64,000 nucleotides of DNA from contig JAUYBG010000010.1 of NCBI GenBank assembly GCA_030693205.1, positions 66,059 to 130,058 of the forward strand, in the 5' to 3' direction. The DNA comes from a bacterium. Its GTDB lineage: Bacteria; Patescibacteriota; Minisyncoccia; JAHIHE01. Position numbers and translations under genes: made by a program. The notes beneath the pieces were generated by a model, which did no database searches, was not told where the DNA came from, and saw only the letters and a program-made list of their open reading frames with translations. Positions 6,037-47,118 of this stretch are shown here, piece by piece (position 1 is the first letter of the stretch; each line of letters starts with the position of its first letter).

Positions 6037-6045
6037 TATTTATTT

Positions 6046-7602
6046 ATGGTTTATAAACCTACTATCGGTTTGGAAATTCATGTTGAACTAAAAACAAACT
6101 CAAAAATGTTTTGCGGTTGCGCCAATAACGCGCTGGAAAAAAGGCCGAATTTTAATATTTGTCCTGTTTGCACCGGCCAGCCGGGAACTTTGCCCTTGGC
6201 AAATAAAAAAGCGATAGAGCTGGTGGTCAGGGCGGCTTTGGCTTTAAATTGTAATATAAATAAATTTTCAAAATTCGACCGAAAAAATTATTTTTATCCG
6301 GATCTGCCGAAAGGTTATCAGATCTCGCAATATGACAAGCCGTTGAGCAAAGAGGGATATCTTGATATTAATATCACAGATTATAATGGTGATATTAATA
6401 AATCCCAAATCCCAAATCCCAAATCCCAAATAAATTCTAAATTACAAACTGCAAAAGTTAAACGGGTGCGAATTACTAGAATACATCTGGAAGAAGATAC
6501 GGGCAAATTATTGCATCCCGATAATGCCGATTATAGCTTGATCGATTATAATCGGGCCGGCGCTCCATTGATGGAATTGGTGACTGAGCCCGACATTGCT
6601 TCGTCCGGCGAAGCGAAGAAATTTTGCCAGGATCTTCAGCTGATCTTTCGTTATTTGGATATTTCCGACGCTGATATGGAAAAAGGGCAAATGCGCTGCG
6701 AGGTAAATATTTCTTTATCAGACAGCGATAAATTGGGAACAAAAGCGGAAATTAAAAATCTCAATTCTTTTAAAGCGGTGGAAAAATCCATTGAGTATGA
6801 GATTGTTCGCCAGAGAAAAGCGCTTACAAAAGGCGAAAAAATTGTTCAAGAAACTCGCGGTTGGGATGAAAACAAAGGCGTAACTTTTTCCCAGCGTGCC
6901 AAAGAAGAAGCTCATGATTATCGGTATTTTCCCGAACCCGATTTGCCGCCGATCGATTTTGAAAAAAACACAGTAGCCGATATTGAAGCGATAAGAAATC
7001 AGCTGCCGGAATTGCCGGAAATAAAAAGAAAAAGATTTTTTGAAGAATATAAATTGCCGGCCAGCGATATTGAAGTTTTGGTTTCAAATAAAAAATTCGC
7101 GGAATATTTCGAGGAAGCCGCTTCCGAATTGGATTCTTGGATCGAAGATAAAAATCTTCCAATAAAAGGCAAAGAGCATCTCCGAATGATCAAAATGGTC
7201 GTTAATTATTTGATTGGCGACATACAATATTTATTGGCGAATTCTAAAACGGAAATAGGTTCTATCAAGATCACGCCGGAAAATTTTGCGGAATTTGTCA
7301 CTCTTGTTTTTGAAGGAAAAATTTCTTCAGCGGCGGCCAAGACGGTTTTGGCGGAAATGTTTGCCAATGGTTCGGATCCGTCGAATATTATTGAAGCAAA
7401 GGAGTTGGCGCAGGAAAGCGGGGAAGATTCTCTGGGCGCGGCGGCGGATGAAGCAATAAAAAATAACCCCGGTCCGGCGGGGGATTATAAGGCAGGCAAA
7501 ACTCAGGCTTTGCAGTTTTTGGTGGGGCAGGTAATGAAGATCAGTAAAGGTAAGGCGAATCCCAAAATTGCAATGGAGTTGCTGAAGAAAAAATTGGGTT
7601 AA
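6046..7602 (+). CDS. gatB: Asp-tRNA(Asn)/Glu-tRNA(Gln) amidotransferase subunit B
   Basis: The N-terminus IGLEIHVELKTNSKMFCGC...CPVCTGQPGTLP is the GatB signature. A C-terminal YqeY-like tail is present. Confidence 0.9.
   Translation: MVYKPTIGLEIHVELKTNSKMFCGCANNALEKRPNFNICPVCTGQPGTLPLANKKAIELVVRAALALNCNINKFSKFDRKNYFYPDLPKGYQISQYDKPLSKEGYLDINITDYNGDINKSQIPNPKSQINSKLQTAKVKRVRITRIHLEEDTGKLLHPDNADYSLIDYNRAGAPLMELVTEPDIASSGEAKKFCQDLQLIFRYLDISDADMEKGQMRCEVNISLSDSDKLGTKAEIKNLNSFKAVEKSIEYEIVRQRKALTKGEKIVQETRGWDENKGVTFSQRAKEEAHDYRYFPEPDLPPIDFEKNTVADIEAIRNQLPELPEIKRKRFFEEYKLPASDIEVLVSNKKFAEYFEEAASELDSWIEDKNLPIKGKEHLRMIKMVVNYLIGDIQYLLANSKTEIGSIKITPENFAEFVTLVFEGKISSAAAKTVLAEMFANGSDPSNIIEAKELAQESGEDSLGAAADEAIKNNPGPAGDYKAGKTQALQFLVGQVMKISKGKANPKIAMELLKKKLG
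6401..6431. repeat. (AAATCCC)4 heptanucleotide microsatellite in-frame inside gatB
   Basis: aaatcccaaatcccaaatcccaaatcccaaat encodes KSQIPNPKSQI. Confidence 0.8.
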
Positions 7603-10588: not shown

Positions 10589-12094
10589 TTAGTATAGATC
10601 TTTGGAGTCAGTGCCAGTTCCGGATATTGGACATTTGTCTACTTTTCTCCAATTAGCTGGCACATCGCAGGGTGTGGGAAATACTTTACAGATTCCTTCC
10701 GGACTGATTGCCGGTGTGATCACTTGAATACAGACTGCTGGTTTAGGAGTAATGCTTACAGTAGGTGGAATTTCCGGTATACTTATGTCCGGTGGGATTT
10801 TTGGTATGCCTGTAATAGGCGGAGTTTCACAAGTTCCTTTCCGAATTATTTCCATTCCGGCCGCTTTGGCAAAACACTCATTAGAATAAGTTTTACCGTT
10901 TTTACCGCAAACCGGATTCCATATCTCAATACAAGCGGGGCCAACATTCAAAACAGGAGGGGTATTTGGGGGAGTAACGCCTGTATCGGGAGTAATGATT
11001 CTATTGGGTGGAACCACCACATCGCCCGTGACTATACATATGGGTTGCGAAGGACAGCCTTTTATGTCCGGGCCAAAAACCACTCTTCCGTTTTTGCAAA
11101 AATCAGAGGCAACGCCCCAAGCCGCACAGCCGATTCGCCGCCCTTCCTCGTTTATTTTTTTTAAAATATCCGCTTTTCCCGCCTCCAGTTTTTCTTGCAG
11201 CCGGGGAGTCTCAACTGTCGCGGTTCCCGCTTTTATTCTCGCTTTCAAATTTTCCAATATTTCCAGTTGTGTTTTTTTGACGCCGGAAATTGTTCCGATA
11301 TAGCCTTTAAATTTTTCCTGATCTTCCGGGCTCATTTTTTCCAGATCCCTCTGCAGTCTTTTCAGAGAATTTTCTTCGGCTTTTTGGATTGCTCCTCTTG
11401 CCTGTTCCGGTAATTTTTCTCCCAAATTTTTTAAAACTTCCAAATTTTTGAATTCTTTAAACTGGCTGCCTGCCTGTTTATCCAGGGCGCTATCAAGCTT
11501 TTCGGTTATTTTTTCCGGCCTGTCTTCCAATTTTTGCATTACGTTATTAAATCTTTCCAGCTGCGCGTCTTTTGCTTCTTTTATTTTTGCGAGCGCTTCC
11601 GATGGAACCTGGGTTTCCAATTTTTGAAGAAGTTTTTGGTGCAGGGCTTGCTGGCCGATGAATTTATTAAGGAAAGTTTCCACTTGAGGATTTTCTTTGG
11701 CTTTTTGATTTATTGCGTTGGCTGCTGTTTTCAGCTGTTCGGCTTCTTTTTGGTAATTTTCCGTTGCCTTTTTAATCGCTTCTTGGTTTTTATTTTGTTC
11801 GATCGTTTTTTTCAGTTCCAGTAATTTTTCATTGGCAAATTTCTCTTTTAGCTCAGTTTTGGCGATAGAGCTAAAAGTGAAAAAACTCTGGATTCCTCTT
11901 TGCCAGTTTTTTAGAAAATAAAATGAGCTATCCGGCAGAATTACTGGTTCGCTGATCCCCAGATCGCTTGCTTGTATATTTTCATCGAGATTCACGGCGG
12001 CTGCCGTTTCTGGCGCTGTTTCCTGGGCTAAGGCCGTCAATCCAAAAATAAAAATCATCGCTAAGCTTAAACCGAAGATTTTTAAACTTTTCAT
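10589..12094 (-). CDS. Secreted coiled-coil protein with a C-terminal Kazal-type protease-inhibitor domain
   Basis: Signal peptide MKSLKIFGLSLAMIFIFGLTALA. A long E/K/Q-rich helical region. Kazal signature C-IEIWN-PVCGKNGKTYSNEC-FAKAAGMEIIRKGTC. Confidence 0.6.
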   Translation of the reverse strand: MKSLKIFGLSLAMIFIFGLTALAQETAPETAAAVNLDENIQASDLGISEPVILPDSSFYFLKNWQRGIQSFFTFSSIAKTELKEKFANEKLLELKKTIEQNKNQEAIKKATENYQKEAEQLKTAANAINQKAKENPQVETFLNKFIGQQALHQKLLQKLETQVPSEALAKIKEAKDAQLERFNNVMQKLEDRPEKITEKLDSALDKQAGSQFKEFKNLEVLKNLGEKLPEQARGAIQKAEENSLKRLQRDLEKMSPEDQEKFKGYIGTISGVKKTQLEILENLKARIKAGTATVETPRLQEKLEAGKADILKKINEEGRRIGCAAWGVASDFCKNGRVVFGPDIKGCPSQPICIVTGDVVVPPNRIITPDTGVTPPNTPPVLNVGPACIEIWNPVCGKNGKTYSNECFAKAAGMEIIRKGTCETPPITGIPKIPPDISIPEIPPTVSITPKPAVCIQVITPAISPEGICKVFPTPCDVPANWRKVDKCPISGTGTDSKDLY

Positions 12095-12205: not shown

Positions 12206-13651
12206 TTAGCTCAAAAAATCAATTATTCCCATTTCAAATTTATCCAGTTCCGGCGTCATTGGCCAGCCATACGAAAGAGGGGTAAGAATGGCGAAGCTTA
12301 TGGCGATTAAAATCAACAACGCGGCGAAAATCTCTTTGTCTTTTTGGTAAATTTTTTCCAGATAAATGCTTAAAAGCAGAATGGCAAACGTGGCCGAGAG
12401 CAGGTAATGATAAAGAAAAGCCACGCGTTTGACCCCGATGAAAGGCAGGATATTGGCAAAATACGCCAAAACCAGCAAATACATAAACGGTGTAATTTTT
12501 TGCCGTTCTTTTTTACTGACTATTAAAATCAAAGTCAGAGCGATCGCTCCAAACGCGAGCCCCCAGAGGACAGGATTTCCGAGAAAATAAATTTTTCCGA
12601 TCTTTTGTCCATTGTCGGGAGTCGGCGCTTGATACCAATAATATATCGGTTTTTTATCAGAAGGCCATTCGTTCCATACACTGCTAAAAGGATGAGTGGC
12701 GGTCAGTCCGGCGCTGGCGCCGTACATTGTGGCATTTAACTCAATGAATTTTTCCCAAAAATTAAGCGGATCGGGAGTATCTTCTTTTCCGTTTTTGAGT
12801 TCGGACTGGAAAGGCGCGCTCATAAACGCGTCGCCCTGTCCGGACTTGGTCAGAAGATCGAAATGGATATAAAACGGGATCAAATAAATCAGGAATCCCG
12901 TCACGAAAATGATCACAATGCCGGCGATAGCTTCTTTGATTTTGATCATTATAGAAACGGCATGATTTTCCGGGCTTAGCCAATCGGACATTTTTCTGCT
13001 AATAATTTTAATCAATAAAATTGTTACAATAACGCCGATTGTCGCGAGTCCTGTCCATTTTATTGAAACAGTTAATCCGAAACTAACGCCGGTTAGCGCC
13101 AGAAAAGCAAACCATTTCTTGCTGAAGATTTTTTCTTTTTGATAAAGCAGGAAAAAGCAGAAAGTCAGGATCTCAAAAAACACGAGGAAGATATCAATAG
13201 CGATTATTTTTGATTGAACCAGGAAGGCGTTATCGAGTAGGATCAGCACTCCGGCGATCAGGGCAATCTGTCTTGAGCGGGTGGCAAGGTACGCGAACCA
13301 CGAAAAAAGCAATACGAATAAACTTCCGAACAAAGCCGGCAGAAATCTTAAGGTGAAAAATAATTGCGAGTTTGCCGCTTCGCCGATTTTGTCAAAGTTA
13401 AACACAAGATCGAAATTCATTAATTTTGCCCAGCCGGCGATGATAAGCTTTCCCAGAGGCGGGTGGATGTCAAAATAATATTGGTGGTTGAAATAAGCCG
13501 CGGCAAATTTACCAAAGTATATTTCGTCAAAAATTGTCTGATTGGGGTAGGCGAGGAAGGCGAAATGAACAATGAAAGCCGATATTGCCAGAATAACGAA
13601 TAGATAGTTTGTTCTGAGAAAATCTTTTAGCCAAATTATTGACAAATGCAT
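12206..13651 (-). CDS. GT39 (PMT/ArnT-like) membrane glycosyltransferase, resembling protein O-mannosyltransferases
   Basis: FDEIYFGKFAAAY...YFDIHPPLGKLIIAGW matches the conserved PMT loop-1 motif. Multiple TM helices. Confidence 0.6.
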   Translation of the reverse strand: MHLSIIWLKDFLRTNYLFVILAISAFIVHFAFLAYPNQTIFDEIYFGKFAAAYFNHQYYFDIHPPLGKLIIAGWAKLMNFDLVFNFDKIGEAANSQLFFTLRFLPALFGSLFVLLFSWFAYLATRSRQIALIAGVLILLDNAFLVQSKIIAIDIFLVFFEILTFCFFLLYQKEKIFSKKWFAFLALTGVSFGLTVSIKWTGLATIGVIVTILLIKIISRKMSDWLSPENHAVSIMIKIKEAIAGIVIIFVTGFLIYLIPFYIHFDLLTKSGQGDAFMSAPFQSELKNGKEDTPDPLNFWEKFIELNATMYGASAGLTATHPFSSVWNEWPSDKKPIYYWYQAPTPDNGQKIGKIYFLGNPVLWGLAFGAIALTLILIVSKKERQKITPFMYLLVLAYFANILPFIGVKRVAFLYHYLLSATFAILLLSIYLEKIYQKDKEIFAALLILIAISFAILTPLSYGWPMTPELDKFEMGIIDFLS

Positions 13652-20328: not shown

Positions 20329-21081
20329 TCAGCTGTTATTGAATTTTCGCGGCGAAATTCCCTGGAGAATTTTAAAATCTTTTGAAACAAAAACCGCGAT
20401 GATCATCAGGGGAATGCTGAAATAGATCGCCGAGGTTTCTTTTGAAACGATGATAAAATAATTAAAAACGCCGTGCAAAATTATGGCAAAGGCGAAACCT
20501 TTGGCTATCAATAGACGCGGGTTTGCCGGGCATTGGTCGCGCTTGCAGAGCGAAAGAGCGTAATAGAATCCGATGATGGCTGACGCCAAAGTATGGAGAA
20601 AAGTGGCTCCAATAAAGCGAATTCCCAATATATAAAGAGGCAGAGCCGGGTCAAAGAAAAAAGCCGGCGAGAACAAAAGCATTACCATGATATTTTCCAC
20701 TGCCGCGAATCCCAGAGCCGCGACGATCATATAGATCATCGCGTCTTCGGGCTCGTCGAAAACAGGATTATGCTTCATTGCCAGGCGCACGACCAGATAT
20801 TTGAAAAATTCTTCTATTGCCGCGATGCCGATAAAAACAATCGCGAGATTTTTCGCGAAAGAGTTGAAGAAATCCGGCAAAGCTGAATTTAGAAAATTGA
20901 AAAATCCGATAGCTTGCCATTCAATGATGATCACCAAAGGCACGATGGCCATTCCGGCCAAGAATATCAGCAAAAGCCATTTTTTGGGCTCGGGATGGAT
21001 ATCTTTCCGCAAATAAAAAGCGAGCCAGACGATGCTGGGCAAAATTCCCAAAATAATCGCAAGAAAATAATTATATGGCAT
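20329..21081 (-). CDS. PrsW-family intramembrane metalloprotease
   Basis: Polytopic membrane protein with AAIEEFFKYL (EExxK) and AALGFAAVEN (FxxxE) motifs. Confidence 0.55.
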   Translation of the reverse strand: MPYNYFLAIILGILPSIVWLAFYLRKDIHPEPKKWLLLIFLAGMAIVPLVIIIEWQAIGFFNFLNSALPDFFNSFAKNLAIVFIGIAAIEEFFKYLVVRLAMKHNPVFDEPEDAMIYMIVAALGFAAVENIMVMLLFSPAFFFDPALPLYILGIRFIGATFLHTLASAIIGFYYALSLCKRDQCPANPRLLIAKGFAFAIILHGVFNYFIIVSKETSAIYFSIPLMIIAVFVSKDFKILQGISPRKFNNS

Positions 21082-21291: not shown

Positions 21292-24200
21292 ATGAATACC
21301 CCCCCCGTTAGTTTAAAGAATAAGGTTTACCGAATTTTTAAACAATCATTTTTTATTATTTTCGCCGCGGCATTTTTAATGGGCGGTTTTTTTGTTGCCG
21401 ATAGCGCATTGGCAACTGGCGGAACGGTTTCGGTTATTGCGCAAAATTCGCAAGTAAACGTTTCAGCAGATGCCGTTAGCGGTTCAAGTGTCAGCGTAGG
21501 AACAATTACAATGACCGAAGGTAATAACGGAGCTTTTCAGTTGGGCACTATAACTTTGACGCCCCCGACAGGTTTTATATTTGATATAACGTCTATTGTA
21601 GACATTGAAATTATTGGCGATTCTTCTTTCGCTAATAATATTAATAATGCAGTAAGTGGAACGCATTTCTCAGCTTCTACCGTAGCATCTTTAATAAGTT
21701 TTAATATTATCGCGCCAAGCGCTAACAATAAAGCCGGCACATTGGTATGGTCAAATATAAAAGTAAAGCCGACATCTGGATCGCCTTTAGTTTCAGGTAG
21801 AATAACAATTGGCGGAACATCCGTGGCATCCCCTAACGCATATAATAATGTTTTTCCAATTTTATTAAATGAAGTTGCCGGTTATCCAAGTGTAAGTAAT
21901 TCAACTTTTGTCTGCAATCCTACAGTGCAAGCTGCAGGCGGTATATCTACTTGTAATATCACAGTAAGAGATCAGTTTAATAATTCAATATCAAGTGCTT
22001 CAGTTCTACTTTCGTCTACTGGTTCGGGTAATAATTTTAGTACCAATCCAGCTTTGACCGACGCAAATGGCAATACTACGATAACTTTGGGATCAGGTAC
22101 GGCAGAGACTAAGATTGTTACTGCAACTATTGACGGAAGTGTGATTCTACCGACGCAATTGATCATATTTTATGTTAGCACTCCAACCCAAGCACATATT
22201 GTTGCAATTCCAAATACTCAAGAAGCAAGTTTAAGTGGTAGCAGTGTTAATTTAACTATCAGTATTACTGATCAGCATGGTAATCCAGCCAATGATGGTA
22301 TTGTGGTAAATGTCTCCGGTATTCCGAGCACGTTAGGTACCGTTACAGTTACTGGAAGTGGAAATACAGCAAGTGGTCAGGTAACACGTGTTTTAACTTT
22401 TAATAATAAAGGCGATATTACTTTGACAGTTAATATTTCATCTATAGGTAATCTTGCCTTGACTGGTGATAGTATTGTTCATTTTGTTGATACAATCAAA
22501 CCGGTAATTACTATTATACTTCCAAATCCAGCCGAGGTTGAATATCGCGGCACGTATTCAGATGCGGGCGCTACAGCTTTTGATAATATAGATGGAAATA
22601 TTACCAGCAGTATTATGGCTATCAATCTAGTTAACCCAAATACTATAAATGTAGTACCGAATTCGATTACAAAAATCGTTGGAGTTTATACGGTTACTTA
22701 CAATGTTTCTGATAGCGTTCCAAACGCCGCTGATCCCGCAGTAAGAACCGTCAATGTATTGGACAGAATTGCTCCGATAATTACTTCCATCACTTCTGAC
22801 GCTACGGCAGAAGGAGCTTTAAAAATTGGCAATACGATTACTTTTACTCTTACCCCAACTCCCGCAGAACCAGTTGCTACAGTAAGCGGTTCCTACAATG
22901 GACATTCTTTAACCTGGTCTACTGTTAATAGCGGGGTAACCTATACCGCAACTTATACTGTAATTGAGGGTGACACAGACCGAATTTCGCCATGGCAAAT
23001 TACCGGCGTGATAATGACCGATGAAGCTGGCAACATAAGTGTTTCTGCAAACGGCACTGATGTAGTAAAGACGATTGATGCGAATACTCCTTCAATTCCG
23101 AGTGTGTTGGTTGCCGCTGGTCCGTACATCAACGCCGCAGAAGAATTGGCGGGATTTACGACGATGGTTTCTTACAACACGACACTTTCCAACGGCGCCA
23201 AAGCAGGCGACACGCTCGAGTTGTGGCTCAACGGTGCGCCGTTTATGATTGCGAAGACTGTCGTACTTTCAGCGAGCGACATTACTGCAGGTTCGTATAG
23301 TTTCACTATCATTACCGACGAGTTGGGCGCAGACGGCGTAAAGTTGCTGACCGCACGGCTCACGGATGTTGCAGGCAATGTGGGATTATGGAGTGCGTCT
23401 CTCGTTCTCACGCTCGACACAGGTATTCCGTCTGTACCCTCGGCACCGGATCTCGATGCGGCATCAGACCTTGGTCTATCAGATACCGACAATATTACCA
23501 ACGACAACACGCCGTCCTTTAACGGCACGGCTGAAGCAGGTTCAACAGTGAAGCTCTACGATGGCGCAACTGAAATCGGAAACGGCACGGCAACGGGAGG
23601 AGGGGCGTGGAGCATCATTTCTACTCTTCTTGTGGACGGTGCACACACCATTACCGCGACCGCGACGGATGCCGCAGGCAACACGAGCGGTGCGTCTGAA
23701 TCACTTTCTGTCACGATTGATACGGAACTTGTCGCGCTCTCCTTGACCTCCACTGCACCAAATCCGACAAAAGCATCTCCGATTTTGATAACCGCACAAT
23801 TTACACAAGATGTAAACGGTTTTGAAGTTGGTGATATTGTCGTTACTAATGGAGCGGTTGGTACTTTTGTCAAAGTTAATGCTAGTACCTATCAGTTTGA
23901 TGTAATACCCGCTGGACAAGGCGCGGTGACGGTCAATATCGCGGCAGGAGTCGCACATGATACAGCTGGCAACGGCAATACAGTAGCGACCGGACTCTCT
24001 CGCATCTACGACACGATAAACCCGACGGTTACATTGGTGGCGCTCTCTGATCTCGACGCGCTTGTGAAGCAAGGTGATACGCTAATAATCACGGCGACAT
24101 TCAGCGAAGACATGGCGCTCTCGCCGGTGCCAACGATAGAACTTACTGGCACCAATACAGTTGCACCTGTCGCAATGACGCGCACTAGTGCGACCAACTA

Positions 24201-25911
24201 CACTTACTCTCACACAGTCGGCGCCGGAGATGGTTTAGTAACTATCATTATTGCTGGTGGCACTGACCTTGCGACAAACACATTGATTATTAACTCCGCC
24301 ACGACATTTACCGTAGACAATACCCTGCCGGTGATTGCGTCGAGCGATCCGATAAATACTGTTGCAAATGCGATAGGAGGCGCGACTGTTTTTTATACGA
24401 CTCCGATTGCAACTGACCTTTATCCTGTAAATCCTGTAGTCACTTGTCTGCCTGCATCGGGTGCATTCTTTGTTCTTGGGAATACAATCGTAACCTGCAA
24501 TGCAACTGACCAAGCGGGAAATATCGCAATTCCAATGACATTTAATGTTATGGTTAATCCTGACACAGTAACGCATATAATTTTGATTGCCTCACCGACG
24601 AGTTTAGCTTTCAGCCAGACAAGCTTAATCACTATTACGGGAAAAGATCAATACGATAATACAGTAACTAATAACGATTCAACCGTAATTGTTCTTTCCG
24701 CTGACGGTGGCGGAAGTCTTGGCGATACAATTTTAACTTTATCAGAAGGTGTGGCAACAACAAACCTTTCTAAAGATTCAGTTGGTATAGTTCACGTTAC
24801 AGCATCCAGCGTTGGATTAAGTCCGCAAGCAGTGACAGTTACATTTACTAAAACCGATACCAGCAGTCCATATGTGGAAAGCCATACTCCAGTTAATGGA
24901 GCTACAGGCGTCGCTTTAAATATTCATCCGGTTTTAATATTTTCTGAACCACTAGACACTACCACAGTAAGTTCAGCCAATATTCAATTACGTAAATACA
25001 GTGATAATTCAGTGATACTAGCAAACGTTTCTCCTGCAGAGGGAGACAGACAGGTAATTATTACTCCAGCAAGTTCTTTGGATTTTAGCACCTCATACTA
25101 CCTTGCAGTTTCAGCTGGCGTAACAGATAAAGTGGGCAATCCAGCAGTAGTGTTAGACAATAGCACCAAAGGCAATCATATGTTTACCACGCTAGTTGAT
25201 AACACTGTTTTAGCGGTAACATATATTTCTGCGGTTGCAAACGCACACGGCTCAACAGGATTTGCCATAGCAAATAACACCTTTGAGGATGGCTGGGCGT
25301 GGATATTCTATATCACTGTCCCTACAAATGAGACTGCTTTCGCAATGAAATTTGCTGATTGGACAAGCGTTTTGCCAAATACAATTCCTGTTGCCAATAA
25401 TGTCAGATATTCTTCAGTACAGGCGAGTAATGGTCCATTTGAAATTACCGAAGCAAATGAGCTTGGTGGATATCTAAATCTGACAGGCGATTTGTTCCCT
25501 GGAATTGCAGGCAGGCAAATTGAAATTTTAGTTGAAGCAAAAATACCGCTACTTTCGGCTGGAGGATCTTACTCAACAAGCTATGGCATACAAACAAATC
25601 CTGCAATTGCTCAAGCCACGGACGCAGAAAATGTCGCTGCCGCCCAAGCCGCTGTGACCGCACTGGCACAACCTTGGTCCCCAATCTATAATAATAATCG
25701 GAATATTATCACGGACCTGCAGGCGATAGTTGACGCAGTTTCAACCGGCGTAACAGTAACGATTAAAACAACCAATAACTCGCAAATTTCAATAGATGGT
25801 GCCATTGCATACCCGGGAGTGGCAGTTACCGGAAACGTAATATTTACCTTAACCAAAGGCACAGAAATTGTAGATCAGACAATTTCAGTGATTATTTATC
25901 CTCTCGGCTAA
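21292..25911 (+). CDS. Giant secreted surface protein (1539 aa) with tandem bacterial Ig-like (Big) domains; adhesin-like
   Basis: N-terminal signal/TM. Repeated beta-rich T/S/V domains, including Big_3-like segments (DNTPSFNGTAEAGSTVKLYDGATEIGNGTATGGGAWSI) and HYR/DUF5011-like segments (AFDNIDGNITS...). No catalytic motifs. Confidence 0.65.
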   Translation: MNTPPVSLKNKVYRIFKQSFFIIFAAAFLMGGFFVADSALATGGTVSVIAQNSQVNVSADAVSGSSVSVGTITMTEGNNGAFQLGTITLTPPTGFIFDITSIVDIEIIGDSSFANNINNAVSGTHFSASTVASLISFNIIAPSANNKAGTLVWSNIKVKPTSGSPLVSGRITIGGTSVASPNAYNNVFPILLNEVAGYPSVSNSTFVCNPTVQAAGGISTCNITVRDQFNNSISSASVLLSSTGSGNNFSTNPALTDANGNTTITLGSGTAETKIVTATIDGSVILPTQLIIFYVSTPTQAHIVAIPNTQEASLSGSSVNLTISITDQHGNPANDGIVVNVSGIPSTLGTVTVTGSGNTASGQVTRVLTFNNKGDITLTVNISSIGNLALTGDSIVHFVDTIKPVITIILPNPAEVEYRGTYSDAGATAFDNIDGNITSSIMAINLVNPNTINVVPNSITKIVGVYTVTYNVSDSVPNAADPAVRTVNVLDRIAPIITSITSDATAEGALKIGNTITFTLTPTPAEPVATVSGSYNGHSLTWSTVNSGVTYTATYTVIEGDTDRISPWQITGVIMTDEAGNISVSANGTDVVKTIDANTPSIPSVLVAAGPYINAAEELAGFTTMVSYNTTLSNGAKAGDTLELWLNGAPFMIAKTVVLSASDITAGSYSFTIITDELGADGVKLLTARLTDVAGNVGLWSASLVLTLDTGIPSVPSAPDLDAASDLGLSDTDNITNDNTPSFNGTAEAGSTVKLYDGATEIGNGTATGGGAWSIISTLLVDGAHTITATATDAAGNTSGASESLSVTIDTELVALSLTSTAPNPTKASPILITAQFTQDVNGFEVGDIVVTNGAVGTFVKVNASTYQFDVIPAGQGAVTVNIAAGVAHDTAGNGNTVATGLSRIYDTINPTVTLVALSDLDALVKQGDTLIITATFSEDMALSPVPTIELTGTNTVAPVAMTRTSATNYTYSHTVGAGDGLVTIIIAGGTDLATNTLIINSATTFTVDNTLPVIASSDPINTVANAIGGATVFYTTPIATDLYPVNPVVTCLPASGAFFVLGNTIVTCNATDQAGNIAIPMTFNVMVNPDTVTHIILIASPTSLAFSQTSLITITGKDQYDNTVTNNDSTVIVLSADGGGSLGDTILTLSEGVATTNLSKDSVGIVHVTASSVGLSPQAVTVTFTKTDTSSPYVESHTPVNGATGVALNIHPVLIFSEPLDTTTVSSANIQLRKYSDNSVILANVSPAEGDRQVIITPASSLDFSTSYYLAVSAGVTDKVGNPAVVLDNSTKGNHMFTTLVDNTVLAVTYISAVANAHGSTGFAIANNTFEDGWAWIFYITVPTNETAFAMKFADWTSVLPNTIPVANNVRYSSVQASNGPFEITEANELGGYLNLTGDLFPGIAGRQIEILVEAKIPLLSAGGSYSTSYGIQTNPAIAQATDAENVAAAQAAVTALAQPWSPIYNNNRNIITDLQAIVDAVSTGVTVTIKTTNNSQISIDGAIAYPGVAVTGNVIFTLTKGTEIVDQTISVIIYPLG

Positions 25912-25944: not shown

Positions 25945-26568
25945 ATGAAAAATTTAATAAAAATTATATCTGTGATATTTCTGGCGTTGTTTTACGCGGT
26001 TAATTTTGCTTCAGCTTCAACAACAGGCGGTAATTTAAACACAGGAATAGACACGGGAATTGGTGGAACTGTTATTGTAAATCCAACTGCAAATGTGCCG
26101 TCTGGAATATATACATCGGTGCAATATGTCAGCTTGGCGGCAATAGGTTCTTTAAGCGTTTACTATACAACTAATGGAGATGCGCCCATTTGTTTAGCCT
26201 CAAGCATTTATTCAGCTCCGATAGTTATTTCCGCAACGTCAACCTTAGAAGCAATTGCTTGTTATGCAAATAGTATTACATCAAGTATCTCTTCGTTTCC
26301 TTATGTGATTAATTTGCCTACTACTCCCACGCCTAGCCCAACTCCCACGCCAGTACAGCAATCTTCAGGTGGCGGAGGAGGTTCATATACCCCTCCCCCA
26401 ACATCCAAAACGGGCGACATTGATGGCAATGGCAAAGTTGATAAATATGATTTTGCTATGCTGATGGCATCTTGGGATCAAACCGGATCAAATTCATCTG
26501 ATTTAAATCACGATAATAAAGTTGATAAATATGACTTCGCTTTATTAATGTTAAACTGGGGTAAATAA
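25945..26568 (+). CDS. Secreted protein with a CHB_HEX_C/Fn3-like domain, a PT linker and a C-terminal dockerin module
   Basis: Signal peptide. PTTPTPSPTPTP linker. Two Ca-binding dockerin repeats, DIDGNGKVDKYDFAMLM and DLNHDNKVDKYDFALLM. Confidence 0.55.
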   Translation: MKNLIKIISVIFLALFYAVNFASASTTGGNLNTGIDTGIGGTVIVNPTANVPSGIYTSVQYVSLAAIGSLSVYYTTNGDAPICLASSIYSAPIVISATSTLEAIACYANSITSSISSFPYVINLPTTPTPSPTPTPVQQSSGGGGGSYTPPPTSKTGDIDGNGKVDKYDFAMLMASWDQTGSNSSDLNHDNKVDKYDFALLMLNWGK

Positions 26569-26577
26569 AACAAAAAT

Positions 26578-27369
26578 ATGAAAAACACCAAAACAAAAAT
26601 TATATTATCAGCGATTATCTTTTTGTCAGTTGCCGGTTTTGCCGGAATAGTTGCCGCCGCGGGTTCTTCCGTGTATGTTTCCCCGGCAAGCTTGACCAAA
26701 ACCGTCGGGGACATTTTTAGCGTGTCCGCAGGAGTTAGCACTTCGGGAAGCAAAGTTTGCGCTGTTGAGGGGAGATTAGTTTTTAACAATCTGTCTTGCC
26801 AAAGCATAACTGTGGACGGAAATGTCACTCCGCAATCTGTGCCTACTTGTTCAAATCCATATTTTTTAATTGGCGTGCCAAGCTGTTCAACAGCAGATAA
26901 GGTATTGTTTACAGTGTCAGCCAAGGCCGGAAGCGCCGGCACAGCCTCTATTAGCTTCACAGGCGTTGATATAATAGGCGAAGGTGTGTCAGTTGGCACA
27001 GCTTCGGTAAGTGGAAATTATACGATCAATGCTATTCTAACAGCAACCTTAACACCAGCGCCGACAACTGCGCCAAAAACCGCATCAACACCAACGCCCA
27101 AATCTATGCCCAAATCAACGGTCACGCCGACTTCTACGCCTACTCCGGTTTCAGACGAACAGCCTTCTGTATTAACTCCAACCCCGACTCCATTACCTCA
27201 AACAGTGTCAAACGAACAGCCTCCGAAACAATCTTCGTTCATGGCGGCAGTTAGTAGTGTCTTCACTCTGGGAACTGGAAATATCTGGGTAAGTCTTTTA
27301 ATTCTATTGATCATCGGCGGTGTAATTTATTACTTTATTCGAAGAGAGCGCCGCAAGAACTTGGAGTAA
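26578..27369 (+). CDS. Cohesin-like domain protein with a P/T-rich stalk and a C-terminal transmembrane anchor
   Basis: Signal peptide. About 130 aa with a cohesin-like beta-sandwich pattern (VYVSPASLTKTVGDIFSVSAGV...VLFTVSAKAGSAGTASISFTGV). TPTPTP linker. C-terminal TM IWVSLLILLIIGGVIYYFIRRERRK. Confidence 0.45.
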   Translation: MKNTKTKIILSAIIFLSVAGFAGIVAAAGSSVYVSPASLTKTVGDIFSVSAGVSTSGSKVCAVEGRLVFNNLSCQSITVDGNVTPQSVPTCSNPYFLIGVPSCSTADKVLFTVSAKAGSAGTASISFTGVDIIGEGVSVGTASVSGNYTINAILTATLTPAPTTAPKTASTPTPKSMPKSTVTPTSTPTPVSDEQPSVLTPTPTPLPQTVSNEQPPKQSSFMAAVSSVFTLGTGNIWVSLLILLIIGGVIYYFIRRERRKNLE

Positions 27370-27676
27370 ACTCGTTATAAAAAACTCCCGCGATCAATAT
27401 TGCGGGAGTTTTGATTTGTCGATAACCCCTTGCTTTTTTACGGAAAAGTAGTAAGCTATGTTTATTGTTGTACGCAACAAAAGGAGGTAATAAAGGTACG
27501 GCAATAAAACTAAAACATTCCTTGAGGCTTATGGCACTATTAAGCCTCGGTTTATTCTCACTAACATTAAATAATGTTGAAAAAGTTGAGAAAATACCCA
27601 TTTCCGTATATCCTATTGTGGGATTATTAATTATGTATGGTATATATATTAACGGAAAAAAAAGTCCTGACACATG

Positions 27677-27713: not shown

Positions 27714-27831
27714 CGATTAAAGATTTTTCTATACATATATAAAGATAATATAACTAAGCGGATATTGCAAAATATTTGATATTATAATCTTCCTGTGTTA
27801 GAATGAAAATATAATTGTTAAAATAATTTAT
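27684..27831. repeat. 150-bp direct repeat, copy 1 (terminator/promoter module upstream of the subtilisin gene)
   Basis: About 92% identical to 29543-29690. Contains a candidate sigma70 promoter TTGATA-17-TAGAAT. Confidence 0.75.
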
Positions 27832-27912: not shown

Positions 27913-29115
27913 ATGAAAAACAAAATCAAAGTTTTTATTGCCGGCGGTGCGGCAATAATCGCAATCCTTGGCTTAGTTTCGCCGATTTTCGCTTCACAGT
28001 CTAATAGTGAACCCTCGCAAAGAAAAATTGTAGTTTTCAAGCAAGGAGTTTTAAGCGAATCGGAGAAAGACGCTTTAGTTGATAATTCAGGCGGAGCAAG
28101 AATTAAAGATTTAAAATTAATCAATGGCAAGGCGGTTATTTTGTCTCCAAGAGCGGAAAAAGCCCTGGCAAAAAGACCGGAAGTTTTAAGAATTGACGAC
28201 GATGCGGTGGTTGAAGCTTTAGTAAAAGGCGGTATTTCTGCCAAGCCTGCTCCTGCTAATCCTGCTGAAATTTTGCCTTGGGGAGTGGATAGAATTGACG
28301 CGGAAAAGGTTTGGAGCGCCACCACTGGCGATCCGATTAAAGTCGCAGTGCTTGATACGGGCATTGATATTTATCACCCTGACTTAAAAGCCAATTTAAA
28401 GGGAGGATTTAATACCATCAATCCTTTTAAAAGCTATAACGATGACAACGGACATGGCACTCATGTGGCGGGCATTATCGCAGCGGCGGACAATGAAATC
28501 GGCGTAATCGGCGTGGGACCAAAAATTGATCTTTATGCGGTTAAAGCGTTGGATCGCAATGGCTCCGGTTATCTTTCCGATATTATCGAAGGCCTTGATT
28601 GGGCGATTGCCAACGGCATGCAAGTGGTAAATATGAGTTTGGGAACAACGGCCGATGTGCAATCTTTTCGAGAAGCGGTGCAAAAAGCGAATGCCGCGGG
28701 AATTGTGCAGGTAGCGGCTGCGGGCAATAACGGAGTATCTGTAATTTATCCCGCCGCATATTCGGAAGTAATCGCCGTTTCGGCAACTGATAAGACGGAT
28801 GTTGCCGCTTCTTGGTCTTCTCGCGGGCCGGAAGTTGATTTAGCCGCGCCGGGAGTTTCCATTTATTCAACCTACAAAGGCTCAACATATAAAACTTTAA
28901 GTGGTACTTCTATGGCTTCTCCTCATGTCGCTGGCGTCGCGGCCCTGGCTTTGACAACCTCAATTGGTACCTGGGATTTAGACGGTGACGGTGTTTGGGA
29001 TCCGGTGGAAGTTCAGAATAAGTTGGAGCGAACCGCGGAAGATTTGGGCGCGGAGGGCAGAGATAATTTATACGGCGCAGGGCTGGTTGACGCGGAAGCG
29101 GCGGTATTAAGGTAA
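27913..29115 (+). CDS. Subtilisin-like serine protease (S8) with an N-terminal I9 propeptide
   Basis: Signal peptide. Catalytic triad blocks VAVLDTGID (Asp), HGTHVAGIIAA (His) and GTSMASPHVAGVAAL (Ser). Confidence 0.85.
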   Translation: MKNKIKVFIAGGAAIIAILGLVSPIFASQSNSEPSQRKIVVFKQGVLSESEKDALVDNSGGARIKDLKLINGKAVILSPRAEKALAKRPEVLRIDDDAVVEALVKGGISAKPAPANPAEILPWGVDRIDAEKVWSATTGDPIKVAVLDTGIDIYHPDLKANLKGGFNTINPFKSYNDDNGHGTHVAGIIAAADNEIGVIGVGPKIDLYAVKALDRNGSGYLSDIIEGLDWAIANGMQVVNMSLGTTADVQSFREAVQKANAAGIVQVAAAGNNGVSVIYPAAYSEVIAVSATDKTDVAASWSSRGPEVDLAAPGVSIYSTYKGSTYKTLSGTSMASPHVAGVAALALTTSIGTWDLDGDGVWDPVEVQNKLERTAEDLGAEGRDNLYGAGLVDAEAAVLR

Positions 29116-31421: not shown

Positions 31422-33212
31422 ATGAAAGAAAAAATTAGAAATATATCGAGCGCATTGCTTACGTTTGGAATAATAGTGGTACTATTTTCTAGCGTAGTAA
31501 TGGCAGCAGATAACACTTTCCAATACCCGCTTGATGTACCATGGAATCCATCCCGTAATTTTAGTGAATGGATAAATAACTGGGATGGAAATGGATCCAA
31601 TGGTTACCATTTGGGTGTAGATATACCCGCAGATCCACTTATAAAAGTTAAAGCCGCTTCTGACGGTATTGTCATATTTGCCGGTCCAATGATAGGATAC
31701 GGAAATGTAGTTATAATCAAACACCCAAATAGTGATGTAACTACTCTTTATGGCCATTTGGGCAAAAGTCTCAATGTAAGCAATAAAGATTCTATAAACA
31801 AAGGACAAATAATTGGATACATCGGAAACAGTTCAGAAAATGGTGGATGGTTGTTTACGCACTTACATTTTGGTATACGTAAAGGGCTAGACAAAACAAC
31901 AGCTTTGATTTGCGGTAATTGGCCATATGTCGGGTACTCGCAACCATGTAAAAAATTTACTCATGAACAACAGGTTGACATGTGGTATAACCCATCAGAG
32001 TTTATTAAAGAACATCTTCAACCCCCAATCCCGCCAAAACAAAAACTCACAGTTCTCTCTCCCAATGGCGGAGAAAACTGGCCGGTTGGAAGCGAGCAAA
32101 AGATCCAGTGGAAGTTTACGGGAAAACAAACAACATCAGTAAAAATTGAACTTCAAAAAAGTTCTTCTTCCTTGTTCACTGAACTCATTGCTATATTTGT
32201 TCCAACAGACTATAACGGCGATGGTTCGTATCTTTGGACTATTCCTGCCACTCATGAGACAGGAACTGACTACAAGATAATTGTTACGAGCATAGAAAAC
32301 TCAAAACGTACTGACACGAGCGATGGATATTTCACCATCAGCGCGCCAGCACCGCCTCCAACCCCCACCGAACCTGTGCATAATGTCAATAAAAATACTG
32401 ACTACACATCTGTTCAGGGAGCCATAAACGATGCGAATATCGGAGATGAGATCGATGTTTACAGCGGCACGTATTATGAGAACGTGAATGTAAATAAGCA
32501 GTTAATACTGGAAGGAATTGGAAATCCTATCGTAGATGCCCATAGCAATGGAAGCGCGATCACGCTTTCCGCGAACGGAATTAGGCTGGAAGGATTTACT
32601 GCAATCAATGCCAGCTCTTCAGGAGCAGGAATCTGGATTGCTTCCAACAACAACACGCTGATTGAAAATAATGCCGGCCCGAATAATCACTTCGGTATCT
32701 ATATGGCCTATTCCAACAATAATACATTGAACGGGAACAATGTAAACTCGAATAATTATCACGGCATTCTGATGGAAGGCGGAAACAATAACAACACATT
32801 GATCGGTAATAATATCAGTTCAAACAATATTGATGGCATCTTCCTGTATTCTTCCGGCAACAACACTTTGACTGGCAACAATGTATCGGATAACCACCGT
32901 AACGGCATTTATATATGGTATTCCAGCAACAATAACACAGTGAACGGCAACAGCGCCTCGAATAATAGTTATGGGATCGTTTTGGAAGCTTCTATCTACA
33001 ACAAAGTTTACCAAAATAATCTTGTTAGCAATAGCTATAATGGTTATGATTCAAGCATCGACAATCAATGGGACAATGGCACAGTAGGCAACTATTACAG
33101 CGATTATACAGGCATAGACCTGAACGGCGACGGTATAGGTGATACTCCATATCCAATACCCGGAGGCAGCAGCAGAGACAGATACCCGCTGATGAATAAA
33201 TGGCAAAACTAG
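31422..33212 (+). CDS. Secreted M23-family peptidase fused to right-handed parallel beta-helix (PbH1/NosD-like) repeats
   Basis: M23 motifs HLGVDIPAD...DGIVIFAG...HLHFGIR. The C-terminus has 8 or more repeats of the form NNTLxGNNxxxNxxxGIxL. Confidence 0.7.
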   Translation: MKEKIRNISSALLTFGIIVVLFSSVVMAADNTFQYPLDVPWNPSRNFSEWINNWDGNGSNGYHLGVDIPADPLIKVKAASDGIVIFAGPMIGYGNVVIIKHPNSDVTTLYGHLGKSLNVSNKDSINKGQIIGYIGNSSENGGWLFTHLHFGIRKGLDKTTALICGNWPYVGYSQPCKKFTHEQQVDMWYNPSEFIKEHLQPPIPPKQKLTVLSPNGGENWPVGSEQKIQWKFTGKQTTSVKIELQKSSSSLFTELIAIFVPTDYNGDGSYLWTIPATHETGTDYKIIVTSIENSKRTDTSDGYFTISAPAPPPTPTEPVHNVNKNTDYTSVQGAINDANIGDEIDVYSGTYYENVNVNKQLILEGIGNPIVDAHSNGSAITLSANGIRLEGFTAINASSSGAGIWIASNNNTLIENNAGPNNHFGIYMAYSNNNTLNGNNVNSNNYHGILMEGGNNNNTLIGNNISSNNIDGIFLYSSGNNTLTGNNVSDNHRNGIYIWYSSNNNTVNGNSASNNSYGIVLEASIYNKVYQNNLVSNSYNGYDSSIDNQWDNGTVGNYYSDYTGIDLNGDGIGDTPYPIPGGSSRDRYPLMNKWQN

Positions 33213-43439: not shown

Positions 43440-44560
43440 AAGTTATTTTGTCAATAAATTGTATAAGTCCACCCTTTTTTGCACTCCTCGTTAATTTTTA
43501 AATTTCTTGGCAAGGATAGGAGATATTGCACCGGCGATAATTTGTTTTGAAAAGCACAATGCGGTCTTTCGGTATTATACCATAAAAGATAATCAATAAC
43601 TTTTCGGTTGAAATTGTCAGGATTTTCCAACTCTCCTAGATGGTAATCAATGAATTCATCTTGAATCGTGCGGTTGAATCTTTCAATATGCGCGTTCATT
43701 TTAGGAGTTCTGGGGTAGGTATGATAATGAATCAAATGCAAGCGATTTAATTCTTCGTTAAAATGCTTCTTGAATTCAGAGCCGTTATCGGTTAAAACGA
43801 AAGTAAAAGGAAACGGGAAAGCTTTCTGGCAGTAATCAAAAAAATCTTTAGCGGCTTTTGAGGCGTGGCTGGTGGTGGCCCAGGCAAAAGCAAATCTGGT
43901 GTGAATGTCTTCAAAGGTAATTATGTATCTTCTGATTCCGTATACGAATTTCTCTATGGAATCCAAAGCAACCAAATGTCCCGGATATTCTGCTTTAAAA
44001 TCCTTTGGCTTACGCAATACTTTCTTTCTTTTAAGAGGTTTGATCTTGCCAAAATGAGTGACTTTTTGAGGAAATATTCTTAAGCCCCCTAAGTCCATAA
44101 TCAGCCTGCCGATAGTGGAAGATTCGGGGCATCGTTGATTATGCTCTTGGCAGAACTTTTTAAGCAAAGGATGAATTTTATCTTTACCCAGATTGGGATG
44201 CTTGAATCTTAATCGTTTGATTTCAGAGATCACTTCTTCCGGCCACAATCTTTTTCTTCTGATTATTGGGGCTTTGGATTTCTCGTTCAGAGCTTCGGGC
44301 TTTCTGCCGCCGCTGATAAACTTGGCTTTCCAGCCATAGAGAGTTCTCTCCTTGGTCTTAAAGGCATCAAGCGCGGCTTCCAGCCCGTGCTTCTCCCAGA
44401 AAGCCAATACTCGAGCTTTATGCAATGCTTTGGCAGTGATCATATATTGGTATTTTAAGGCGTAATTATACAAGGTGATAAAACCTTTAATACCAGTATA
44501 TTTAGAATGGATTGAATTGTAAAACTCCATTTAGGGTTTCATGGAGTGCAAGATGTATGT
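43440..44560 (-). mobile_element. IS element encoding a DDE transposase (rve integrase core; IS481-like)
   Basis: ORF 43451-44530 (-) carries an rve-type D,D,E core (...VALDSIE..., ...VLTDNGSEF..., ...NAHIERFNRTIQDEF). A 9-bp inverted motif ttgcactcc lies at 43479-43487, and its reverse complement ggagtgcaa at 44541-44549. Confidence 0.6.
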
Positions 44561-46601: not shown

Positions 46602-47118
46602 TTCTCTTTTGAGGATTGTTTTCTTTTTCTTTAAAAAGTTTTCTTAAGGTATCAAAAACGATTTTAAAACTTTTATCATATTTCTTTTCCAGTCCTTCAA
46701 TTTTAATTCTCAGTTCGCGATTAGTCGCAATCATTTCTTTTAACTTAATGAAAGTTTTGATAATTTGAATATTTACTTGTATTGCTCTTTTGCTATTCAA
46801 AACACTGGAGAGCATAGCAACTCCATGCTCAGTAAAAACCAAAGGCGCTTTTCTTGTTCCGCCCCAACTTGATGTCCCAATTTGGGATATCAAAAATTGC
46901 GATTGCCAAATTTCAACTTCTTTTTTATTAAGCTGAAACATAAATTCTTCTGGAAATCTATCCATATTTCTACGAACAACCCGATTAAGAATTCTCGTTT
47001 CCACCCCATAAAGCTCTGCCAAATCCCTATCAAATATAACTTTCTTGCCTCTGATAAAAAATATTTTACTCTCTATCGTTTCATTAACCAAGATAATTGA
47101 TTGATCTTTTGACGGCAT
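46579..47118 (-). CDS. ORF6N-domain protein (phage antirepressor-like, KilA-N related)
   Basis: IRGKKVIFDRDLAELYGVETRILNRVVRRNMDRFPEEFMFQL...FTEHGVAMLSSVLNSKRAIQVNIQIIKTF matches the ORF6N consensus. Confidence 0.55.
   Translation of the reverse strand: MPSKDQSIILVNETIESKIFFIRGKKVIFDRDLAELYGVETRILNRVVRRNMDRFPEEFMFQLNKKEVEIWQSQFLISQIGTSSWGGTRKAPLVFTEHGVAMLSSVLNSKRAIQVNIQIIKTFIKLKEMIATNRELRIKIEGLEKKYDKSFKIVFDTLRKLFKEKENNPQKRIGFGGEK

Follow-up and report, generated by a model that had tools for sequence, protein, structure and literature searches.

Do two small, adjacent genes on a patescibacterial contig encode the plug and the socket of a protein-docking system, and if so, what is docked? The question is posed by a 64-kb stretch of contig JAUYBG010000010.1 (positions 66,059 to 130,058 of assembly GCA_030693205.1), hereafter the window, to whose numbering all coordinates refer unless another locus is named. 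The Patescibacteria, for which candidate phyla radiation (CPR) is another name, represent a large share of bacterial diversity, and an attached life on host cells is assumed for most of them; the means by which they retain adhesins and lytic enzymes at the cell surface are largely obscure, and most of the genes concerned are annotated as hypothetical. A first-pass annotation of the window had described gene 1 (25945..26568, + strand) as a dockerin-bearing protein and gene 2 (26578..27369, + strand) as a cohesin-like membrane protein, which together would form a minimal cohesin-dockerin pair outside a cellulolytic context. Both open reading frames (ORFs) are found exactly where it had placed them, on the same strand and in the same frame, with 9 nucleotides between them. 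We consider it likely that the two proteins constitute a non-cellulosomal plug-and-socket module that displays proteins on the cell surface by non-covalent attachment, and that the socket belongs to a divergent cohesin family of the Patescibacteria.

Gene 1 encodes a client protein of 207 residues, whose domain order is the one proposed in the first-pass annotation. A Sec-type signal peptide (residues 1–24, 25945..26016, ending in ...NFASA/STTG, with a helix at residues 2–19 in the model) is followed by a cargo domain, an Ig/FN3-like β-sandwich of the CHB_HEX_C_1/Fn3_assoc type (residues ~40–122, 26062..26310), by a flexible linker rich in Pro, Thr, Ser and Gly (residues 123–155, 26311..26409; LPTTPTPSPTPTPVQQSSGGGGGSYTPPPTSKT), and by a C-terminal dockerin with two EF-hand-like calcium loops and their helices (residues 156–207, 26410..26565); here and in the following, features lie on the + strand unless marked otherwise. 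Pfam detects Fn3_assoc with 41.3 bits, CHB_HEX_C_1 with 37.5 bits and Dockerin_1 (PF00404) with 30.7 bits against a cutoff of 22.9 (residues 157–202), while a custom hidden Markov model (HMM) of CPR dockerins yields 99 bits for the latter. In the AlphaFold2 (AF2) model, which is based on 33 homologs and has a mean pLDDT (predicted local distance difference test) of 80.8, the β-sandwich and the helices at residues 167–175 and 195–203 all exceed a pLDDT of 90, and the linker falls below 50 at residues 137–150. In Foldseek, the modeled dockerin superimposes on a dockerin of B. cellulosolvens (2y3n_B) with a root-mean-square deviation of 0.7 Å over 52 columns (TM-score 0.82, 29% identity), and the cargo domain finds its best matches in an Akkermansia glycosidase chain (8ayr; 27–28% identity over ~80 columns) and in the Fn3-like modules of CbhA.

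The two dockerin repeats, DIDGNGKVDKYDF from D158 and DLNHDNKVDKYDF from D186, display the calcium-ligand pattern of the family at positions 1, 3, 5, 9 and 12. In repeat 1 (D158–W177), these positions are occupied by D158, D160, N162, D166 and D169, and in repeat 2 (D186–W205) by D186, N188, D190, D194 and D197. Membership of gene 1 in Dockerin_1 is therefore established by the Pfam threshold, the repeat pattern and the fold, and nearly all of its 142 homologs likewise match PF00404. By analogy with other dockerins, this domain would fold in a calcium-dependent manner and bind a cohesin, with K164/K167/Y168 and K192/K195/Y196 as putative recognition residues.

Gene 2, the putative receptor, encodes a protein of 263 residues, and its AF2 model and sequence bear out the anticipated order of signal peptide, β-sandwich, Thr/Pro-rich stalk and C-terminal transmembrane anchor. 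The signal peptide (residues 1–28, 26578..26661, ending in ...GIVAAA/GSS, with a helix at residues 3–20) precedes the β-sandwich (residues 29–152, 26662..27033), which is supported by the model, by Foldseek, by conservation and by covariation with the dockerin. It is followed by a stalk rich in Thr, Pro, Ala and Ser, which is disordered in the model (residues 153–219, 27034..27234), and by a membrane anchor (27235..27366) composed of a juxtamembrane helix (residues 220–229, FMAAVSSVFT), a transmembrane helix (residues ~236–257) and the basic tail RRERRKNLE, with modeled helices at residues 220–229 and 236–262. The all-β domain (residues ~30–152) is modeled with a pLDDT above 90 and comprises about nine main strands (11 DSSP elements).

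Whether this sandwich is a cohesin is one of the points on which the first-pass annotation had made its proposal depend, and the comparison of the AF2 domain with the PDB by Foldseek answered it in favor of a cohesin. Cohesins represent 20 of the 21 best matches (E 9.5e-8 to 5.7e-4, probability 1.00), with target-normalized TM-scores of 0.6–0.7 and a maximum of 0.70. All three cohesin types, I, II and III, are matched, and the hits include a non-cellulosomal cohesin from A. fulgidus (2xdh, rank 3) and the cohesin of C. perfringens GH84C (2w1n, rank 11). By its modeled fold, gene 2 is a cohesin; by sequence, as judged with Pfam, PDB profiles and hhalign, it is not. Since the sequence tests are negative and the fold matches are cohesins, the assignment rests on fold and context. 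Indirect evidence, namely the constant adjacency of a dockerin gene and the covariation of residues 64 and 131 with dockerin position 10 described below, speaks strongly for a specific binding of the dockerin, which would involve the 8-3-6-5 sheet of this domain.

The family to which gene 2 belongs has so far gone unannotated. An NCBI entry of 100% identity is annotated as ‘hypothetical protein’, and its more than 172 close homologs lack any Pfam domain, the members named in their sources all being hypothetical except for one Joint Genome Institute (JGI) entry labeled ‘FliL’. A profile search of 1.84 billion protein representatives (E <= 0.001) expanded the family to 288 clusters at 50% identity. 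Among the best 150 matches, which clearly belong to the family without exception, nearly all proteins measure 220–290 residues and carry one cohesin-like domain at residues ~28–154. Relatives of gene 2 come from Wildermuth-, Jorgensen-, Gribaldo-, Staskawicz- and Nealsonbacteria, Minisyncoccia and Paceibacterota. Conserved in the domain are four cysteines (C61, C74, C91 and C103), which probably form disulfides, as well as K59, E64, G65, Q86, P89 and a VDIIGEG motif with D131 and G134-E135-G136. The stalk has a median length of 64 residues and is rich in Thr, Pro, Ala, Glu and Ser, and a C-terminal anchor, defined as an uncharged stretch of at least 16 residues with a Lys/Arg-rich tail, is present in 235 of 263 members. 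Some members deviate in length or content: cohesin-like proteins of 380–590 residues, as opposed to the usual ~250, are encoded in L027 (5929–7221), L037 (5956–7230) and L038 (5983–7137) and are further represented by P0247, P0369 and P0251, and at least one member additionally bears Bact_surface_Ig-like/DUF5018 domains.

To place the pair in a comparative frame, we scanned loci from Patescibacteria metagenome-assembled genomes (MAGs) and metagenomes with two custom HMMs, one of the CPR dockerin and one of the cohesin-like domain: 35 from GTDB species representatives, eight obtained by exact protein look-up and 24 from metagenomes, amounting to 63 loci after removal of redundancy and 532 kb of fetched sequence. 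In 58 of the 63, a gene ending in a dockerin lies immediately upstream of the cohesin-like gene on the same strand, and this holds for all 58 loci with intact upstream DNA; the intergenic distance ranges from -13 to +71 nucleotides and is mostly 4–25. In four of the remaining five loci, the cohesin-like gene sits at a contig edge, and the fifth (L040) is a gapped or chimeric assembly. We rejected L040 as a genuine exception: its gene is broken at about residue 73, fused to a repeat of the C-terminus of the upstream ribosomal L7/L12-like gene and accompanied by 100 N (4800–6600), which marks it as an assembly artefact. Among the GTDB species representatives, 33 of 35 loci have the upstream dockerin gene; of the two others, one stops at the end of its contig and one is chimeric in its assembly. 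As only two further dockerin matches occur elsewhere in the 532 kb, the adjacency is far from what would be expected by chance. We refer to this arrangement as the cassette.

Within the cassette, the dockerin is highly conserved and always ends no more than five residues from the C-terminus of its protein, whereas the cargo preceding it varies from about 110 to 1,988 residues in length. The Asp/Asn ligand pattern (positions 1, 3, 5, 9 and 12, with a helix after the loop) is kept in both repeats across the 58 pairs, and the dockerins of 13 other cassettes score 25–38 bits with Pfam. A natural fusion of dockerin and cohesin was not found. Two cassettes can occur in one genome, as in L014 and L022 (one MAG, JBAZYR01) or P0109 and P0119 (one 785-kb contig). 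Three cassette contigs (L011, L020 and L026) come from MAGs labeled Firestonebacteria, Bacteroidota and Gammaproteobacteria, and a large number of further contigs bear the label ‘Saccharibacteria’ from a TPA pipeline; the odd labels are likely to reflect mis-binned or loosely labeled Patescibacteria, the alternative being horizontal transfer.

The most telling evidence for a direct contact comes from residues that change together in the two genes. In the divergent pairs L036 and L038, Glu replaces the conserved Lys at position 10 of the dockerin (KVD-K-YDF) in both repeats, and the cohesin-like partner has Lys in place of Glu64, which is invariant otherwise. We designate cohesin-like domains with E64, D131 and E135 as class A and loci with K64 as class B. 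Within the family, about 45 clusters form this second class, usually with D131 replaced by Lys or Asn (Lys, Asn or Ser among the loci) and E135 by Ala or Val. From the Lys64 class and the rule found in L036 and L038, an acidic position 10 was predicted for the neighboring dockerins, and the prediction held in three loci fetched later (INEYDF/VDEYDF, VDELDF/VDELDF and VDDLDF/VNELDF). Metagenome loci chosen exclusively by the cohesin-side motif C-[VA]-[VI]-K-G added 20 more with an upstream dockerin, all of them acidic at this position. Overall, the 58 unique pairs comprise 32 of the E64-K10 type, 24 of the K64-E/D10 type and one Q64-I10 pair, with no discordant case (Fisher p = 2.3e-16, uncorrected for phylogeny). 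In L052, one dockerin repeat has Ile at position 10, and most dockerins of the K64 class have lost Lys7. The window belongs to the E64 type, with K167 and K195 at position 10 of the two repeats. In a neighbor-joining tree of the cohesin-like domain, calculated with the interface columns masked and without support values, at least three changes in the state of residue 64 are required, namely in the main K64 clade, in a separate pair (L062 and L063) and in the Q64 case, and each change is matched in the partner gene.

In type I complexes (PDB 1OHZ and 2CCL), positions 10 and 11 of a dockerin repeat contact the 8-3-6-5 sheet of the cohesin. Residue 64 of gene 2 is located in the third modeled strand and residues 131 and 135 at the end of the eighth, so that their positions would agree with this canonical dockerin-binding face, as far as the model and the analogy reach. 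In most loci, positions 7, 10 and 11 hardly differ between the two repeats, and this suggests that either helix may engage the cohesin in a dual binding mode. L022 and L025 keep K10 in repeat 2 only. In L022, the first repeat has diverged (TVNENDF) and KYDF is retained in the second, a difference that hints at a single binding mode of this paralog. Taken together, the charge swap and the synteny lend strong independent support, drawn from comparison of sequences, to a direct interaction between the products of gene 1 and gene 2. It may further be that at least two electrostatically orthogonal specificities (E64-K10 and K64-E10) provide separate display channels per cell or community.

From these data, we propose the following mechanism. 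Both proteins would be exported by Sec, and gene 2 would be kept in the membrane by its C-terminal helix, presenting a disulfide-stabilized cohesin-fold domain atop a Thr/Pro-rich stalk of ~65 residues that should be long enough to cross the cell wall. The dockerin of gene 1 would fold around two calcium ions and bind this domain through position 10 and probably also positions 7 and 11 (K7/K10/Y11), facing an acidic patch of E64, D131 and E135 in a contact that is expected to be both electrostatic and hydrophobic, with either dockerin helix able to engage. The docked cargo would here be the small Ig/FN3-like CHB_HEX_C domain and elsewhere, among others, S8 proteases, Ig-repeat adhesins or VWA proteins. 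The pair is probably expressed in an operon with the giant adhesin gene upstream of it, and a strong terminator would end this unit.

Several observations weigh against the module as we describe it. Physical binding, calcium dependence, surface exposure, disulfides and interface geometry are all inferred from what was observed directly, that is, from architectures, folds, synteny and covariation. The covariation has a phylogenetic structure in which one K64 clade is large, and the tree behind the three or more events is the one without support values. The essential dockerin protein of the one genetically tractable Patescibacterium, SEML1_0315, lacks a cohesin-like gene beside it, and the cassette is accordingly no universal feature of the phylum. 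Gene 2 also eludes the sequence methods. Pfam Cohesin (PF00963), the check suggested in the first-pass annotation, does not match it even at E <= 1, a result that would, taken alone, have been a false negative, and matches only one of 44 and three of 87 members of the family, in each case below threshold (best E 0.01); the recurrence of these sub-threshold matches nevertheless counts in favor of a cohesin fold. Three family profiles searched against PDB sequences found no cohesin, their sole matches being Fab signal peptides and low-complexity sequence, and hhalign compared the family with the C. thermocellum CipA cohesins at a probability of 0.2%, a weak test given the narrow target profile of three close sequences. 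Moreover, other β-sandwiches appear among the fold matches with weaker E-values, first CLIPPER (9ifr, rank 12, E 5e-6), then BslA and YcnI. The misses of Pfam and hhalign and the presence of these three proteins would be expected if gene 2 were not a dockerin receptor at all, but a generic stalked β-sandwich, such as a BslA-like coat, a CLIPPER-like tip or a YcnI-like metal binder, that has no more than an operon in common with secreted proteins, next to a dockerin that serves as a stand-alone calcium or carbohydrate module. We hold this to be quite improbable, as cohesins account for nearly the entire top of the match list and have the best E-values, as a dockerin gene adjoins in every intact locus even though the cargo varies, and, above all, as an exception-free charge reversal between residue 64 and position 10 is difficult to account for unless the two are in direct contact.

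A different objection accepts the contact but not its permanence: gene 2 could act as an escort, retention or maturation factor that holds the dockerin protein until its release, for instance by an S8 or PrsW protease, while the final target of the dockerin lies elsewhere, in host glycans or another receptor. Such a role would fit the one-to-one operonic pairing, which resembles dedicated partner systems, as well as the S8 proteases that recur beside or within the cassette and the PrsW gene that adjoins it in the window, L043, L047 and L055. It would also fit the speculation that a dockerin protein of a Saccharibacterium, SEML1_0315 with its missing neighbor, targets host glycans; this essential protein of a cultured strain was read as glycan-targeting, and no partner was named (Wang et al., 2023). 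However, a long stalk with a transmembrane anchor is the architecture of a display scaffold rather than of a chaperone, and nothing in our data points to cleavage. Stable, high-affinity tethering is, to our knowledge, the established function of every characterized cohesin-dockerin pair, which likewise counts against a transient encounter, and we judge it improbable on the whole. More remote still, and in our view very unlikely, is a remnant or minimal cellulosome or amylosome that organizes polysaccharide-degrading enzymes. Dockerin_1 and the cohesin fold are hallmark modules of cellulosomes, and CHB_HEX_C/Fn3_assoc is an accessory domain type of glycosidases, but there is only one cohesin per protein in nearly all members among the best 150 matches, with no multi-cohesin scaffoldin, and Pfam detects no carbohydrate-binding module. 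Glycoside hydrolases are missing from all 44 window ORFs scanned with Pfam, which bears out the earlier view of a non-cellulolytic context, and the dockerin proteins of 13 loci, scanned in the same way, contain no match to glycoside hydrolase, polysaccharide lyase or carbohydrate esterase families; their cargoes are proteases, Ig arrays, VWA/LTD, α/α toroid and FN3 domains instead.

If gene 2 is the socket of a display module, as we favor, what does it display in the window? The first-pass annotation had pointed to the two neighbors, and their identities were borne out by Pfam: the pair lies between a giant, secreted, adhesin-like protein of 1539 residues with Ig repeats (21292..25911; Big_13, Big_5, Big_1, HYR, Big_6, Big_12 and Bact_surface_Ig-like) and a secreted S8 subtilisin of 400 residues with a signal peptide (27913..29115; Peptidase_S8, 215 bits). 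Neither carries a dockerin. We scanned the entire window for dockerin and cohesin-like domains at E <= 10 with the HMMER filters switched off, and gene 1 proved to hold the only dockerin. Apart from the domain of gene 2, no credible cohesin-like domain was found, the one further match (20735–21013) scoring just 5.3 bits (E 4.8). A cryptic dockerin in the adhesin or the subtilisin was considered and rejected, as the same scan gave no HMM match in either. A ‘DLDGDGVWD’ loop near the C-terminus of the subtilisin was rejected as well; it falls inside the Peptidase_S8 match (residues 140–390). Because gene 1 holds the sole dockerin of the window, the adhesin and the subtilisin are not canonical clients, and the demonstrable client of the socket is gene 1 itself.

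The transcriptional layout separates the two neighbors from each other. The adhesin gene ends 33 nucleotides before gene 1, and gene 2 is followed, 12 nucleotides 3' of its stop codon, by an intrinsic terminator hairpin with an A-tract and a U-tract (27381..27412). A consensus scan missed this hairpin and direct folding revealed it, with a 14-bp stem and a ΔG of -20.6 kcal/mol (z = -5.6; none of 200 shuffles was equally stable). The subtilisin gene starts after a gap of 540 nucleotides, which contains a promoter-like site at 27776–27804. Owing to the short gaps of 33 and 9 nucleotides, followed by the terminator and the promoter-bearing gap, the adhesin gene, gene 1 and gene 2 probably form one unit, with the adhesin as first gene. 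The subtilisin gene is a separate transcription unit with an associated function and not a demonstrated client. Of the proposed surface docking of adjacent proteins, the docking pair is thus retained on the strength of fold, synteny and charge swap, and the clienthood of the dockerin-less neighbors, one of them behind a terminator, is not. Gene 1 may act as an adaptor that tethers the dockerin-less adhesin to the membrane socket by way of its CHB_HEX_C/Fn3-like domain.

The comparative data put the idea of adjacent clients in a more favorable light, as dockerins occur elsewhere in fusion with S8 proteases and with homologous Ig-adhesins. Cargo types comprise S8 subtilases with a fervidolysin-type prodomain, VWA with LTD domains, an α/α toroid, FN3 or Pur_ac_phosph_N domains, the small CHB_HEX_C domain and Ig-rich arrays (Bact_surface_Ig-like, DUF5018, Big_5 and HYR); in two of the scanned cargo proteins, the dockerin is the sole domain match. 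Three cargoes (L001 6221–7996, L003 175–1422 and L005 7103–7984) have a common N-terminal domain, ‘SFPSFPMAFWG...’, that matches nothing in Pfam. Homologs of the adhesin are encoded directly upstream of a small CHB_HEX_C-dockerin gene and a cohesin-like gene in L018, L019, L026, L029, L050, L060 and L067, so that this trio recurs in at least seven other loci, which represent both charge classes. In L021, an adhesin-like protein with an S8 domain is itself fused to a dockerin. In L010 and L013, an S8 protease gene is the immediate downstream neighbor of the cohesin-like gene, and in L020, L021 and L034, S8 proteases are dockerin cargo. From this ‘Rosetta-stone’ pattern, it would appear that adhesin, protease, plug and socket are parts of a single surface module, with gene 1 perhaps as an adaptor. 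A further step would be to regard the cassette as a general mount for host-interaction machinery, that is, for giant adhesins, S8 proteases and VWA proteins, in wall-bearing, ultra-small CPR bacteria of the Paceibacteria type; we offer this as a tentative extension that is rather doubtful at present. The wall itself is supported by the window, where MraZ/MraW, a penicillin-binding protein, a Mur ligase, two FemAB proteins and MurJ are encoded and peptidoglycan must therefore be present.

How does this module compare with known surface systems? Its closest known counterparts are OlpA and OlpC of C. thermocellum and ScaE of R. flavefaciens, in which one surface-anchored cohesin of the same fold directly captures a secreted protein by way of a calcium-dependent, two-repeat dockerin, as gene 2 is proposed to do. 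However, these are held by S-layer homology (SLH) repeats or an LPXTG sortase signal, whereas gene 2 has a C-terminal transmembrane helix and a basic tail after a Thr/Pro-rich stalk. Furthermore, the gene 2 cohesin escapes the Pfam model, has four conserved cysteines and finds its partner encoded immediately upstream in a strict 1:1 ratio, and the clients are not carbohydrate-active enzymes (CAZymes), as in those systems, but proteases and adhesins. A catalogue of non-cellulosomal cohesin and dockerin modules has reportedly been compiled by Peer and co-workers. Such modules, for instance that of A. fulgidus (2xdh) and the toxin and glycosidase pairs of C. perfringens (2w1n), also serve functions other than plant cell-wall degradation and frequently occur in single copy, together with protease- or adhesin-like domains; they were found by sequence similarity, which misses the gene 2 family. 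Sortase/LPXTG and SLH anchoring have the same outcome, the retention of adhesins and proteases on the surface, and the C-terminus of gene 2 resembles a sorting signal in outline. In the cassette, by contrast, the client would be held non-covalently via a protein-protein module, and gene 2 has no LPXTG motif: NCBIfam LPXTG_anchor scores 13.8 bits, under the cutoff of 15.9, and Pfam Gram_pos_anchor gives weak matches in only two of 44 and two of 87 family members.

Cohesins that are invisible to sequence searches have been revealed by AlphaFold in Ruminococcus (Minor et al., mBio 2026, PMC13463774), where they belong to multi-cohesin scaffoldins of cellulosomes and amylosomes in gut Firmicutes, whereas gene 2 is a single, membrane-anchored CPR cohesin without CAZyme clients. 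Non-cellulosomal dockerins have also been described in giant proteins of the Omnitrophota (PMC10066038). In the searchable literature, which did not cover subscription journals, we found no description of the cassette, of its spread in the Patescibacteria or of the two charge-reversed classes. What is new is not the principle, but the sequence-invisible, Cys-conserved cohesin family, its transmembrane anchor, the strict 1:1 cassette, the protease and adhesin clients, the charge-reversed classes and the CPR host. The analysis thereby provides a ‘hypothetical’ family of 288 clusters with a fold and a likely role and supplies partners for many CPR proteins annotated as ‘dockerin type I domain-containing’. 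For the cohesin-dockerin field, it adds a sequence-invisible, membrane-anchored cohesin family that presumably contains disulfides, and its specificity classes, whose charges are reversed in nature, could be used as orthogonal parts in the engineering of protein assemblies.

The socket may in addition be subject to processing. In many family members, a motif resembling L-A-[AS]-x-G is found ~12–17 residues before the C-terminal transmembrane segment and the basic tail, reminiscent of the LAxTG signal of class-E sortases; no sortase was detected among the window ORFs scanned with Pfam. Beside the cassette and divergent from the adhesin gene, the window encodes a PrsW-family intramembrane metalloprotease (20329–21081, - strand), and in three class-B loci (L043 1141–1878, L047 795–1547 and L055 1668–2384), a PrsW gene is the immediate downstream neighbor of the cohesin-like gene. 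The association is modest, with four of 63 loci, many of which have short flanks, but such an enzyme could process a membrane-anchored socket. It is conceivable that the socket is further processed at the conserved LA[AS]xG-like juxtamembrane motif and that the PrsW-type protease found repeatedly beside the cassette is responsible.

Several other genes of the window deserve mention. A PMT-type protein O-mannosyltransferase (PMT and PMT_4TMC; 12206–13651, - strand) would have plausible O-glycosylation substrates in the Thr/Pro-rich stalk and linkers of the cassette proteins. A DUF5667 protein contains a Kazal-type serine-protease-inhibitor motif (10589–12094, - strand) and may be a secreted inhibitor partner of the S8 proteases; DUF5667 is also encoded near the cassette in L003 (3378–4751). 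A protein with Peptidase_M23, a Kre9/KNH-like Ig domain and a NosD/β-helix (31422–33212, + strand) is a candidate cell-wall hydrolase that could matter for an epibiotic lifestyle. Near the start of the window, one unusual ORF (3878–5353, + strand) fuses MtrA-like, thymidylate-synthase-like and PterinBD-DUF4346 domains. Lastly, an rve-type integrase/transposase (43451–44530, - strand) and an ORF6N-domain protein (46579–47118, - strand) point to a mobile-element remnant ~16 kb downstream of the cassette.

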